Sequence record: OQ411014.1
DNA: 64,000 bases
Reading direction: 5' to 3' (one strand)
Source of the DNA: Escherichia phage EJP2
The notes below the pieces were generated by a model. The model was not told the DNA's origin. It was given only the letters and a program-made list of their open reading frames with translations, and ran no database searches. The translations under genes and the position numbers were made by a program. Positions 30,061 through 58,942 of the stretch are shown here, one piece after another (within the stretch, counting starts at the first letter, position 1; every line of letters begins with the position of its first letter).

Positions 30061-30245
30061 TGGACAATTCGAAAGAATATAAGTACTGTACAGAATGTAC
30101 TTATGCTTTCACGTTTATGTCCGATAGAATATGCCCTAATTGTGGTGAAATGGACAGTACTGAAATATGTACTCGTCCATCACAATCGATAGACATTAGT
30201 CGATACCTAACATTGAAAGCTATGAAAGGACGTAAACAGTGCTAA
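30060..30245 (+). CDS. zinc-ribbon-like small protein
   Basis: CTEC...CPNCGEMDSTEIC. Confidence 0.5.
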   Translation: MDNSKEYKYCTECTYAFTFMSDRICPNCGEMDSTEICTRPSQSIDISRYLTLKAMKGRKQC

Positions 30246-30637
30246 ACATTTACAATGAACTAATTGAACTTGATTTTTTCAAGAATCCAGCCCGTAAGAC
30301 AAGTACTGAATCATTCTTTGAAAAAGAATTCATGATGCATCTAATGTTTGAAGATGAATACAGTGATGATTCAGTGAATAGTATTCTAGTAGTGAAGGAT
30401 TTATCTGAAGGAAATCTCTCACACATCAATGTCAGTACTAATCGCTGTATGCTCCAGTACTCCAATGATACTGGAATGATTGCTATTGTCAGAGCTAATG
30501 TTTCTGAAGATTTATTCGTACCAATAGCGTGTGATGAAGGTCAGTTCTTTCAGCTTATGGTACTGGAGGATTTGGGGAAGATTACACATGAATATGTGAA
30601 ATTAGTTCAAGATGTTTATGCAATTTTGAGCAAATGA
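30239..30637 (+). CDS. hypothetical protein, family A-like (C-terminal EGQFFQLMVLEDL)
   Basis: GTG start overlapping upstream stop; C-terminal motif resembles the paralog family described in findings. Confidence 0.5.
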   Translation: MLNIYNELIELDFFKNPARKTSTESFFEKEFMMHLMFEDEYSDDSVNSILVVKDLSEGNLSHINVSTNRCMLQYSNDTGMIAIVRANVSEDLFVPIACDEGQFFQLMVLEDLGKITHEYVKLVQDVYAILSK

Positions 30638-30655
30638 AATATATTGTGATATAAT
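30625..30655 (+). promoter_or_regulatory. extended -10 promoter (TGTGATATAAT at 30645-30655)
   Basis: exact recurring 11-mer. Confidence 0.55.
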
Positions 30656-30665
30656 AAGGATATGT

Positions 30666-31646
30666 ATGTACGATACGTGTTTTGTGAGTAACGCACCAAT
30701 CACCCCAGGTGACCATGTGAAGTTATTCTATATCGCTGAGAAACGTGATATTTACGATACGAATCCACCAATGAAAAATAAAGGTGCAGGACAAACGTCC
30801 TGTACTGAAGATTATCTCATCATTGGATTTCCGGTTGAAGCAGTATATGATGAAGATGGGGATTACCAACACATTGATTATCCTGGATTTGAAGCTGAAT
30901 ACGTTCGTGATGTGATCACATCTCATTTAGCTTACGGATTCAGTGCAGTGATTGATTTTGGTGAAGCAACGTTATATACTCTTGATAAAATCATTCAAGA
31001 TGAGCAATTGGTTGTATCTCGCAATGGTATCCGCTCAAGGGTTCATAGAGTTGCAGTACTGGATTATATCTATGAAACAGTCCAAGATACGATTGACCCA
31101 TTTATACTGAGTTCGAATTCGTTCAAGCATTTAGCTAAAGCGTCAGTGAAACATAGTTATGCAATGTCATCTAAGACTGAATCAGTACAGCAATGGGCTA
31201 CTGAAAATGATAAGTACGTAAAGTTAGAGAAGATTCAAGACGCACAGGCTGACCAGTTCAAGTTCATTCATGCACTTGATGTTGTGAATACTAAGATACG
31301 ACCATCGTCACAAGTCAGTTCCACATATCATTTGGATAAAATTGCTTCATATCATTTACGCCTAGCACAGATTATGTTGCAGAAAGAATCCAGATTCTAT
31401 GCAAATACAAAATTCAATTTACAAGTGTGTAAGTGCATTACTCTGAAAGATTTAGAAGAGTTCTTCACTAATCACTATGACAGCGAAGTATATGAGAATG
31501 GTCTTTATGCGATAGAACGCTATAAGGAGCTATTCCAGTACGAATCACTTTATCTGGATTATGAATCGAGTAAAGCCTTACGCTTTGAGGTATTCTTTGA
31601 AGCCGTTGACGATCCCACTGTTCCTATCAAAGTGATAGTTACATAA
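30666..31646 (+). CDS. hypothetical protein (326 aa)
   Basis: ORF with AAGGA RBS. Confidence 0.6.
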   Translation: MYDTCFVSNAPITPGDHVKLFYIAEKRDIYDTNPPMKNKGAGQTSCTEDYLIIGFPVEAVYDEDGDYQHIDYPGFEAEYVRDVITSHLAYGFSAVIDFGEATLYTLDKIIQDEQLVVSRNGIRSRVHRVAVLDYIYETVQDTIDPFILSSNSFKHLAKASVKHSYAMSSKTESVQQWATENDKYVKLEKIQDAQADQFKFIHALDVVNTKIRPSSQVSSTYHLDKIASYHLRLAQIMLQKESRFYANTKFNLQVCKCITLKDLEEFFTNHYDSEVYENGLYAIERYKELFQYESLYLDYESSKALRFEVFFEAVDDPTVPIKVIVT

Positions 31647-31718
31647 AAATTTACAATTATATGTAAATACGTACAGATGTAGAGGTTTTTTCTTTACATC
31701 TGTGCTATGGGAGAATAA

Positions 31719-32045
31719 ATGAAAGTAAAAGAGTTAATCATTAGACTTCAACAACTTGATCCTGAAGCCGTAGTACGTATACCAGTAACTTCAACGAGTT
31801 ATCCATATGGTAGTACTACTTCGGTGGATATTGACGGTGTTGGGGCTGGTATAGATTGGGACATAAGCATTGTACATGTGTATACAAAATCACCACTTGT
31901 ACATTTTATGCCTAATCAGTACGAGAACTTTATGAATGAATTGTTCGCAGCTAACAAGGCTCGTGATGTTGCATTCAAGAAAGGTATCAAAGATGCCAAA
32001 ATCGTCGAAATAAATATGAATCCTATATTTAAAACAGGAGTATAA
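31719..32045 (+). CDS. hypothetical protein, paralog family B
   Basis: N-terminus MKVKELIIRLQQLDPEAVV shared with four other ORFs. Confidence 0.6.
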   Translation: MKVKELIIRLQQLDPEAVVRIPVTSTSYPYGSTTSVDIDGVGAGIDWDISIVHVYTKSPLVHFMPNQYENFMNELFAANKARDVAFKKGIKDAKIVEINMNPIFKTGV

Positions 32046-32047
32046 TA

Positions 32048-57181: not shown

Positions 57182-57210
57182 ACTAACAAATAACACAGAG
57201 GATTGAAAAC

Positions 57211-57639
57211 ATGTCATTAGAAGCTAAAGTACATTTCAAAGATACGTGGATTGACTTAACCACCAATACAGTACTGAACAATGAATTCAGTACACAAACT
57301 CTTTCTGCTGATACAGTAGAAGAACTAACCAAAGATGTTAAGCAACTCATCTCATCACGTGTTGGCTCTGACGTATACAACGCTCAACGCCATATTACTG
57401 AATTGTTAGGTGTAGATGGTATTGAATACCAGATGCAGTACAAAATGAGCAAAGAAGAGATGTTTGACTTCATTTTGACTAACAATGTAGAAATCACACG
57501 AGATGGTGCTGTTTGGACTAAAACTGACGGTCGTAAAGTTCGTGTGAAATATTCTGTCAAGATCAATGATTTGAACTTAGCTGGATATGATTTAGAAGAA
57601 GCTATTCAGTACTATCACGATACGAGAGGTTCACGATGA
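57211..57639 (+). CDS. hypothetical protein, family A-like (SKEEMFDFIL)
   Basis: degenerate family motif. Confidence 0.55.
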   Translation: MSLEAKVHFKDTWIDLTTNTVLNNEFSTQTLSADTVEELTKDVKQLISSRVGSDVYNAQRHITELLGVDGIEYQMQYKMSKEEMFDFILTNNVEITRDGAVWTKTDGRKVRVKYSVKINDLNLAGYDLEEAIQYYHDTRGSR

Positions 57640-58028
57640 TTGTAGTTGCAGTATTACTTGGATTTGCTATAATGGCTATAACGTTACGTCTTAACGGTTA
57701 CTACAGAGACGAACGATTTCGCATTGAGCGAGAGAAAGAACGTGACTTGCACAAAGAAATATATAAAGCACATGAGCCAGTAAAATCACCATATGAAGTT
57801 CGATTGTCTTTGAGTAAGGACAAGAAGTTGGGTTATGCAGTGTATGACCACAGTGTGGGGCATTTTGCGAACTCAAATGGTGTTTTTATGTGGTTTCCTG
57901 ATTCGAAAAGTGCTATGATATTTCAAACAACACTGGAAGTGATTGGTTCATATCCACTAACGTACAAAGAATATCTAGATGTAATTCTTCCTGAAGTACT
58001 AAACCAAGAGAAAACTGAGGAAAAATAA
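57636..58028 (+). CDS. membrane-anchored protein; paralog of next gene
   Basis: N-terminal TM; shares GYAVYD / FANSNG-type motifs with 58029..58379. Confidence 0.5.
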   Translation: MIVVAVLLGFAIMAITLRLNGYYRDERFRIEREKERDLHKEIYKAHEPVKSPYEVRLSLSKDKKLGYAVYDHSVGHFANSNGVFMWFPDSKSAMIFQTTLEVIGSYPLTYKEYLDVILPEVLNQEKTEEK

Positions 58029-58379
58029 ATGTTAGCTGCAATCATCTGTACTGTTATCTTTTCTGCAACGTATTATATTTGCCAGAAGAAACGTACTGAA
58101 GCGTTTGAAACAGCACAAGCTAATCAACTAGAACTTGAGCGTTCTATGTTGATACAGGAGTCCAATGAGGGTAAAGAAGATTCCCCATTCCTCATTAAAC
58201 GTGTAGAATGTAATGGTCGCTGGGGTTATGCAATTTGGGATAAACGTATTTCTGATTATGCTAACATCTCTGACCAAAAGATTGAATTCTTCAGGACATT
58301 GGCTGCGGTTTATTGTATTATGAACGAAATAGAAACTTTTGAGAACTTTAAAGTTACTAAACCTATGCATACATTATAA
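58029..58379 (+). CDS. membrane-anchored protein; paralog of previous gene
   Basis: N-terminal TM; GYAIWD...YANISD. Confidence 0.5.
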   Translation: MLAAIICTVIFSATYYICQKKRTEAFETAQANQLELERSMLIQESNEGKEDSPFLIKRVECNGRWGYAIWDKRISDYANISDQKIEFFRTLAAVYCIMNEIETFENFKVTKPMHTL

Positions 58380-58390
58380 GGAGATATAAG

Positions 58391-58537
58391 ATGATTACTG
58401 TACAACTAAATGGTGTAGAACTAGAACTATCTGTCAAGGATGCAGAGAAACTAGTAGAAGAACTGAACTTCAAAATCAACGAGTACTATTACAGTACTAC
58501 TAACGTTCCTGACTCGGAAATCCTATACCGCGAGTAA
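58391..58537 (+). CDS. small ORF (48 aa), unlisted in ORF track
   Basis: ATG 58391 with strong TAAGGAG RBS; TAA at 58535-58537. Confidence 0.4.
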   Translation: MITVQLNGVELELSVKDAEKLVEELNFKINEYYYSTTNVPDSEILYRE

Positions 58538-58540
58538 ATC

Positions 58541-58942
58541 ATGCAAGAAGAAGATATTGTCGATATACTGAAGGGTGTAGTCAAAGAAATCAGAGATAAT
58601 GGTGAATGCAAACAATGTAGGTTCACCATCAATGATGGTAATGGTTCTGATGGCTCATTTCTTATGCAGTTTGAGAATATGACACTTACCATTTACCCGA
58701 CTTCAGTTATAACAAATCAGTTCGAAACAAATTCAGTGAATTACTTTCGGCGGCATCCAAACGATACAGAAGAACAGTACTTCGCTAGAATGCTAACAGG
58801 CACTGAGAGTATAATTTCTCCCAGTACTGAATTAGTACTACAAAGATTCTTTTTCGTTGTCATTACATTCATTCGTGATGGTCTATCCATGTTTCACGAT
58901 ACAGTCTGGACTGGCAATGCATACTACGATGACCAATTATAA
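58541..58942 (+). CDS. hypothetical protein, paralog family A (TEEQYFARML)
   Basis: family motif. Confidence 0.55.
   Translation: MQEEDIVDILKGVVKEIRDNGECKQCRFTINDGNGSDGSFLMQFENMTLTIYPTSVITNQFETNSVNYFRRHPNDTEEQYFARMLTGTESIISPSTELVLQRFFFVVITFIRDGLSMFHDTVWTGNAYYDDQL

Follow-up and report, generated by a model that had tools for sequence, protein, structure and literature searches.

An expanded family of small, putatively early proteins in the RaK2-like jumbo coliphage EJP2

Members of the family in EJP2

Escherichia phage EJP2 is a RaK2-like jumbo myovirus. Its genome of 349,185 bp, with 540 open reading frames (ORFs) and six tRNA genes, groups with those of the RaK2-like phages (PMC10213699). 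In a stretch of 64,000 nucleotides of this genome (sequence record OQ411014.1), referred to here as the window, 23 genes between 30.2 and 58.9 kb, all on the plus strand, encode small proteins with the family signature T-E-E-E-[YF]-F-Q-x-S-[TL]-[VIL]-x-D, which is degenerate in some of them. The product of one of these genes, 47312..47728, is 100% identical to EJP02_389 of EJP2 (database protein P0004). The proteins comprise 110-175 residues and are mostly acidic, with a median isoelectric point (pI) of 4.6 and a net charge of -9 to -19 in most members; several are neutral or basic (pI 7.2-8.9). An earlier note on this DNA had counted about 17 members, an undercount in view of the 21 robust and two probable members obtained with hidden Markov models (HMMs), and had placed the motif 25-45 residues from the C-terminus, whereas the first Glu of the motif is 32-63 residues away from it.

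Comparisons of the sequences confirmed that the proteins form one real expanded family, larger than first listed. A loose form of the motif, E[ED]..F[QSMLAEH]..[STLMC], occurs in 19 of the 148 plus-strand ORFs and in none of the 112 minus-strand ORFs, and residue-shuffled proteins contain it with a mean of 0.92 and a maximum of 5. The core EE..FQ was observed in 12 ORFs versus 0.15 expected. A profile made from 14 C-terminal segments recovered further ORFs outside the seed set. An HMM built from 76 relatives in other phages, each less than 50% identical to any ORF of the window, identified 20 of the 260 ORFs of the window at E <= 3e-5, mostly in near full-length alignments, in a test that is only partly independent because the 76 relatives were first retrieved by a profile that included window sequences. 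A leave-out HMM added 54447 (E 1.9e-3) and 58541 (E 5.8e-4), with 42574 being marginal (E 0.057). The 20 ORFs found by the HMM together with 54447, which is additionally joined by pairwise phmmer links, are designated robust members, and 58541 and 42574 probable divergent members. In most cases the profile alignments extend over almost the entire protein (HMM positions 3-143 of 155 in one example), which does not agree with proteins that are unrelated apart from a low-complexity EE..FF patch. In the motif the synonymous codons vary freely, and Ser is encoded by both AGY and TCN codons; the conservation therefore acts at the level of the protein, indicative of purifying selection, and a repeat or recombination site at the DNA level is ruled out.

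The window paralogues can barely be aligned with each other, the exception being the tandem duplicates 41713 and 42168, as which they had been recognized before and which are 40% identical over 142 residues (E 3e-25). BLAST between the paralogues mostly covers only the C-terminal part, and in pairwise phmmer comparisons no more than a group of five and a few pairs are connected.

Six members had been left off the earlier list. In the following, E values are those of the HMM of relatives in other phages (155 positions) unless a leave-out value is stated. The first of the six, 32856..33362 (168 residues, E 2.6e-6, HMM positions 18-136), whose start was taken from the near-identical database protein P0091, has a degenerate motif, SESDFFSYILM, and shares its last nucleotides with the beginning of the PTH2 gene. 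Directly after PTH2 is 33750..34172 (140 residues, SEAEQFQRTLVEED, E 2.9e-5), with a likely positional orthologue after PTH2 in the metagenome contig L001 (26% over 131 residues). The others are 34531..34968 (145 residues, PEDEYFHLMLSSD, E 2.9e-5, seed-profile E 2e-4); 35970..36488 (172 residues, DECEYFLLSLS, E 1.1e-11), which matches ORF214 of RaK2 (24% over 153 residues, E 5e-16); 39234..39602 (122 residues, DEDYLFQLSLVCD, E 2.4e-11); and 56795..57157 (120 residues, E 4.2e-9, HMM positions 26-129), with the degenerate motif TREEFDQLLFVHD.

The 18 ORFs listed earlier fared differently: 14 are among the 20 found by the HMM, 54447 is robust as well, two are only probable, and 57211..57639 is unsupported, with a leave-out E of 0.17. 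The first of the 14, 30239..30637 (132 residues, DEGQFFQLMVLED, E 1.1e-9), has a full-length match in contig L001 (25.5% over 141 residues, E 2e-16). It is followed by 35455..35973 (172 residues, SEEQFFQESLKRD, E 1.4e-19, HMM positions 3-143), which belongs to phrog_30111 of unknown function, and by 41283..41720 (145 residues, TEEELFQLSTIQED, E 1.5e-14, HMM positions 1-131). The tandem duplicates are 41713..42159 (148 residues, NEETFFQASMLYD, E 4.9e-11) and 42168..42572 (134 residues, NEETFFQASTLQD, E 2e-12). For 43205..43594 (129 residues, SEEKHFQETLLN, E 2.1e-6) the start at 43205 is preferred because a longer ORF call from 43124 overlaps the tRNA-Ser at 43102-43191. The next members are 43642..44001 (119 residues, DEEDEFQKSTVYE, E 2.1e-5, seed-profile E 7.7e-5); 47312..47728 (138 residues, TEEKFFQYSLVND, E 5.5e-16), whose product was modeled by AlphaFold2; 48866..49357 (163 residues, KEEEYFQYLTTEE, E 4.6e-11); 49418..49885 (155 residues, TEEDYFQQSTIHE, E 8.2e-15), directly downstream of a perfect sigma-70 promoter at 49354-49382; 49889..50302 (137 residues, TEEQYFQFSLLEN, E 1.6e-10); and 51449..51937 (162 residues, TEEELFSKALTQD, E 3.9e-7). 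The array ends with 55439..55828 (129 residues, TEEEFFMKSTIND, E 3.1e-13) and the shortest member, 55835..56170 (111 residues, KEDEFFLESLKRE, E 4e-9), as far as these 14 are concerned. The robust member 54447..54947 (166 residues, leave-out E 1.9e-3, HMM positions 13-135) has the degenerate motif SEKELFEFFLVTD and is in one phmmer cluster (edges at E < 1e-3) with 35455, 47312, 49889 and 55376. The probable divergent members are 42574..43092 (172 residues, TEEENFQISCTD, motif TEEENFQIS, leave-out E 0.057), which BLASTP connects with the 41283 protein (28% over 129 residues, E 0.009), and 58541..58942 (133 residues, TEEQYFARMLTG, leave-out E 5.8e-4), for which the profile of the other phages only gives E 0.58.

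Two further ORFs were considered and rejected. The ORF 25047..25520 contains EEHEFQYST and reaches a leave-out E of only 3.7. The reverse-strand ORF 62025..62381 matches the family HMM with E 0.0016; it overlaps plus-strand genes, the match is confined to the beta region and the motif is lacking, so that it was treated as spurious.

Conservation, predicted fold and known families

Conserved columns were counted over 96 aligned sequences, using the numbering of the 47312 protein. The motif comprises T97, E98 (93 of 96), E99, E100, [YF]101, F102 (95 of 96), Q103 (83 of 96), S105 (81 of 96), [TL]106, [VIL]107 and D109. About 40 residues upstream of it, position 56 is Tyr in 73 and Phe in 17 of the 96 sequences. 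Weaker conservation is seen in L113-[TS]-[YLF]-E-D and at hydrophobic positions of the last helix. AlphaFold2 predicted the structure of the 47312 protein with a mean local confidence (predicted local distance difference test, pLDDT) of 69 when 24 paralogues were supplied and of 80.6 with 111 sequences, the latter with a predicted template modeling score (pTM) of 0.75. The model is a single compact domain of the topology H-E6-H-H, in which an N-terminal helix (residues 5-15) precedes an antiparallel beta meander of six strands (23-25, 29-34, 51-58, 61-67, 71-78 and 84-91) and two C-terminal helices (98-107 and 115-133). The motif forms the first of the C-terminal helices (pLDDT 91-96), and Y56 lies in a central strand of the sheet. 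The conserved hydrophobic columns of strands 51-58 and 71-78 alternate, a pattern that would fit packing of one sheet face on the helices. Among 85 orthologues of the 47312 protein, entropy averages 0.60 over the beta region versus 0.29 over the motif region; the sheet, other than the Tyr, and the loops vary most, between paralogues and within one orthologous group alike.

When 1.84 billion representatives were searched exhaustively with HMMER, 99 clusters were obtained at E <= 1e-3, all of 85-176 residues. Most match over most of the profile, with the consensus [ST]EEE[YF]FQxS[TL][VLI]xD, and in none of the 99 clusters is the motif part of a different or larger architecture. Judged from the profiles and the structural model, the ORFs encode paralogues that belong over their full length to one single-domain family, and their N-terminal parts are divergent homologues rather than unrelated effectors. 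The high divergence of the N-terminal regions pointed out in the earlier note is real, but full-length profiles still align them as homologous sequences.

As the note had stated, the family does not correspond to a named domain. No shared Pfam family was found in 111 members, none of 24 members matched NCBIfam or PADLOC, and in PHROGs the members are scattered over at least nine groups, all of unknown function (phrog_17453, 30111, 38341, 22160, 24941, 34619 and others). Profile searches of the PDB gave only matches to Ocr and FBXL5, neither of which was upheld. The T7 Ocr-type DNA mimic scored E 0.014 with a 24-sequence profile and was lost with the 111-sequence profile, and the model is mainly a beta sheet and not all-helical. 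The match to the hemerythrin/HHE domain of FBXL5 (E 0.04) was largely confined to the EEExFQ stretch; no His column is conserved in the alignment, and the predicted fold is not a helix bundle. The top Foldseek match in the PDB was p32 (1p32, 3qv0, 3jv1, 1yqf), with scores below significance. The p32 fold consists of one N-terminal helix, a seven-stranded antiparallel beta meander and two C-terminal helices, and p32 assembles into a doughnut-shaped homotrimer. The order of the elements in our model is the same and most family members are acidic, but the model has six strands instead of seven and TEEEYFQxS has no counterpart in p32. Homology to p32/MAM33 (PF02330) was rejected, since none of the 111 members matched MAM33 and hhalign of the family alignment with human p32, the sequence of which was checked against 1p32 beforehand, gave a probability of 0.1%. 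On the basis of the model, p32/MAM33 is weakly the closest fold analogue and not a family assignment. BFVD structure matches at E <= 0.01 were all to uncharacterized proteins, the named ones from RaK2 and CBB, and weaker matches came from relatives in Yersinia and Erwinia.

The consensus E-E-E-Y-F-Q-x-S, found for example in 49418..49885 as TEEDYFQQS, resembles the site of the tobacco etch virus (TEV) protease, whose recognition pattern is E-x-x-Y-x-Q, and has Y-F-Q in common with ENLYFQ. The resemblance is almost certainly a coincidence; it is nevertheless a practical warning when proteins of the family are purified with TEV-cleavable tags.

Distribution, neighboring genes and promoters

Named relatives are from RaK2-like phages only, such as Munch, SE_PL, 7t3 and fENko-Kae01, and are all annotated as hypothetical. 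Others are on contigs of about 350 kb labeled E. coli or Salmonella enterica (P0010, P0025, P0038, P0186 and others), which are most likely jumbo-phage genomes co-assembled with the isolates and not chromosomal. Scanning IMG/VR at the DNA level with the degenerate sequence ACNGARGARGARTAYTTYCAR returned 108 loci, of which only nine are true members and the remainder chance matches; all nine are on contigs that could be linked to the RaK2-like group. On one IMG/VR contig of 108.9 kb with family genes, the flank is 74% identical to phage Munch. The copy number ranges from 23 in 29 kb in EJP2 through at least 15 in RaK2 and 14 in 17.6 kb of contig L001 to 4 in 30 kb of CBB, and some members match those of other genera over their full length (25% over 141-153 residues, E about 1e-16). 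The sequences suggest that old paralogues have been retained while the copy number turns over. At another locus, related phages have about 28 genes for proteins of 130-220 residues closely packed without interruption; this second locus occurs in Munch (genes 054-081, positions 21381-36708 of L113) and on the 108.9-kb contig, with coordinates 2661-12554 noted for L112. At least 21 genes of the second locus of Munch have xEExxFQxS[TL], and the family HMM aligns with the greater part of several of the proteins. The second locus represents a longer subfamily of the same family, so that across a whole genome the family is probably much larger than the window reveals; phages with the second locus may reach a total of more than 40 copies per genome.

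In EJP2, T4-type replication genes occupy 1-23 kb of the window, and the DNA of its conserved genes is at most about 75% identical to that of any phage in the collection searched. An ADP-ribosylglycohydrolase gene (27164..28105) is located just upstream of the block of short ORFs. Between about 29 and 59.7 kb every coding ORF is on the plus strand, and these ORFs are short and unannotated, except for those of the peptidyl-tRNA hydrolase PTH2 (33355..33753) and a C5 DNA methylase (36761..37618), both on the plus strand. PTH2 is flanked by family members in the window, RaK2, CBB and contig L001, from which it follows that part of the array is old. PTH2 starts 8 nucleotides ahead of the stop of the upstream family member (33355..33362), which suggests translational coupling. 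As the earlier note had described, tRNA genes are interleaved with the family; they are not part of it. ARAGORN identified six within the array (32682-44769), all on the plus strand: tRNA-Thr(TGT) at 32682..32754, tRNA-Ser(TGA) at 40487..40576, tRNA-Arg(TCT) at 40690..40764, tRNA-Ser(ACT) at 43102..43191, tRNA-Ser(GCT) at 44451..44540 and tRNA-Met(CAT) at 44696..44769. The tRNA-Ser(ACT), as called, is unusual for bacterial systems in that its anticodon would begin with an unmodified A.

The segment 44224..47728 is a mosaic, with 89-96% DNA identity to 121Q-like coliphages versus no more than about 75% for the replication genes of the window, a difference that suggests a recent horizontal exchange of the block of tRNA and accessory genes. 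Also interleaved with the family is a second, smaller set of paralogues (31719..32045, 44029..44238, 45494..45895, 46536..46751 and 48293..48658). They have a common N-terminus resembling MK(x)K(E/D)L(I)xxLxxxDPE(A/T)EVV and none has a Pfam match; phmmer connects 31719 with 48293 and 44029 with 46536. The only long minus-strand ORF noticed in the window, 59787..61025, encodes 412 residues with a weak CarboxypepD_reg (Ig-like) match and is divided from the plus-strand block by a strong GC-rich, terminator-like hairpin (59758..59783).

The window contains 12 perfect TTGACA-N16-17-TATAAT sites versus an expectation of 0.06, all of them on the plus strand and none on the minus strand. They start at 4341, 18827, 20727, 22674, 34965, 43058, 47030, 49354, 50701, 51934, 57154 and 61050; eight of the 12 are at 34.9-61.1 kb and several are directly upstream of family members. 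The site at 34965..34993, with a spacer of 17, is inside the array, that at 43058..43086 precedes the tRNA-Ser and the 43205 member, and those at 47030..47057 and 49354..49382 precede the 47312 and 49418 members, respectively. From these sequences it appears that the phage relies heavily on unmodified host RNA polymerase in both the replication and the accessory region. In CBB, the syntenic block with PTH2, C5 methylase and short hypothetical ORFs is presumed to be an early, host-takeover region in which RpoD-like promoters are concentrated, and 22 ORFs are listed as paralogues, according to the passages searched of the genome paper (PMC5259590). The paralogue sets of RaK2 and CBB, as treated in these passages and in those of the RaK2 paper (PMC3622015), share both the phage group and the region of the genome with the family in the window; the searched passages of both papers contain no description of the family, its motif, its fold or its size. 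Nothing relevant was returned when the literature was searched for accounts of the family, of phage proteins resembling MAM33 and of transcriptomes of RaK2-like phages. The genes are already public as hypothetical proteins, the genome papers speak of paralogues in a general way, and no prior description of the family, the motif, the fold or the scale was found.

Possible functions and meaning of the expansion

The location of the genes in an early-looking accessory region with promoters of the host RNA polymerase type makes a role in host takeover or anti-defence plausible. The reading we favor, to which we give an even chance, is that the family provides a conserved scaffold with a variable binding surface, by which the copies would bind different proteins of the host in the service of takeover or counter-defence. 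The genes would be transcribed early in infection by the host RNA polymerase. The conserved helices and the Tyr would hold the fold together, with part of the motif perhaps serving as a shared functional site, and the variable sheet and loops would determine which partner a given paralogue binds. Each copy would be a small soluble binder or inhibitor acting stoichiometrically on a different host protein, and copies would be gained, lost and diversified as hosts change. Large eukaryotic DNA viruses carry clustered multigene families (MGF), for example MGF110, MGF360 and MGF505 of African swine fever virus, and the array may work in a similar way. Like these and the host-range families of poxviruses, the phage family consists of many divergent paralogues that cluster in variable parts of the genome, with a differing copy number and a presumed interaction with the host, but viruses and hosts are different, there is no homology, and the role of the phage family is putative. 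In phages, a comparable expansion of a single small domain to tens of copies in one jumbo-phage lineage is that of the zinc ribbons of Bacillus phage G, with about 35 copies as given in the passages searched of Iyer et al. (2021, PMC7824862); it concerns another domain, as the EJP2 family has no metal-binding Cys/His pattern, and the EJP2 family is absent from these passages of the survey.

Several points weigh against the scaffold reading. The role as binder or inhibitor draws on genomic context and analogy, and relaxed constraint would explain the rapid change of the beta region equally well. Sigma-70 consensus promoters are also present in the replication part of the window and are therefore not specific to immediate early genes. 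Furthermore, nearly all residues of the motif are conserved, including the polar E98, E99, Q103, S105 and D109, which exceeds what helix packing usually requires and leaves room for a site that binds a shared ligand or partner.

Such a site is central to the proposal, made in the earlier note, of a conserved C-terminal docking module on variable bodies. According to this proposal the last 45 residues or so would form a portable docking or targeting module that brings unrelated effector bodies to one common partner, which might be a host hub protein, a protease, a chaperone or a phage factor. The motif is indeed far better conserved than the remainder, with near-invariant polar residues, BLAST mostly detects only this part of the paralogues, and for some relatives in the databases the match to the profile begins only near position 70. 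Most profile alignments, however, cover the whole protein, a Tyr of the sheet is conserved throughout the family about 40 residues ahead of the motif, the predicted structure is a single compact domain, and the module was not found on any other architecture among the 99 clusters, so that we consider a portable module unlikely. Rather improbable, too, are p32/MAM33-like acidic rings or dimers, or a nucleic-acid mimic, that would sequester basic DNA- or RNA-binding host proteins such as restriction enzymes, nucleoid proteins and nucleases. The predicted order of secondary-structure elements, the top rank of p32 in Foldseek and the strongly negative charge of most members are in line with this possibility, whereas the hhalign and Pfam results, the neutral or basic members and the disappearance of the Ocr match with the deeper profile speak against it.

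The proteins might also be packaged into the virion, with the motif as a packaging signal or a site of a maturation protease. Conserved linear motifs in otherwise divergent proteins are typical of the capsid-targeting and cleavage signals of T4 and phiKZ, and the motif fits the TEV-type pattern. In the annotation of the records, however, RaK2 ORF184, 186, 187, 189, 191, 196, 198, 213, 214, 218, 223, 226-228 and 269 and CBB gp371, gp581, gp588 and gp592 are all hypothetical proteins and none is assigned to a virion structure, although other genes in the same stretches of RaK2 and CBB are annotated as virion structural proteins. In addition, the genes belong to a block with sigma-70 promoters and not to a late block, and the motif is predicted within a confident helix rather than an exposed linker. 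Among the roles suggested in the earlier note, host takeover or anti-defence hence remains plausible from the promoter context, and packaging is disfavored and scarcely probable. It is very unlikely that the genes are decaying or neutral duplicates without a maintained function, of which the motif would be the last recognizable remnant. The extreme divergence of the paralogues and the widely varying copy number among phages would suit such decay, but each of the 23 ORFs is intact and has the length of the domain, full-length matches of some paralogues occur in other phage genera, the 85 orthologues of the 47312 protein show no variation in the motif, and synonymous variation beside conserved amino acids reveals purifying selection.

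A more far-reaching version, which we think is quite improbable, combines a variable surface with a common handle. The proteins would be programmable adaptors whose variable sheet captures different host proteins, for example sensors or effectors of defence systems, and whose TEEEYFQxS helix docks all of them on one host machine, for example an AAA+ protease or the RNA polymerase. If true, many host targets would be redirected or destroyed through a single conserved handle, and with the two loci, and perhaps 40 or more copies per genome, no larger set of genes dedicated to countering the host would be known from any phage.

As far as can be concluded from sequences, the family represents a lineage-specific expansion of small, early-looking proteins in a jumbo phage, a new family with a putative mechanism. 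About one third of a presumably early region of 29 kb is given to one protein family of which we found no description as a family. In practical terms, one profile unites dozens of hypothetical proteins per genome across the RaK2-like phages. If, as in the favored scaffold reading, the proteins bind host proteins, they would provide a ready list of candidate takeover and anti-defence factors for therapeutic jumbo coliphages and would be a natural case of one scaffold diversified for many targets.

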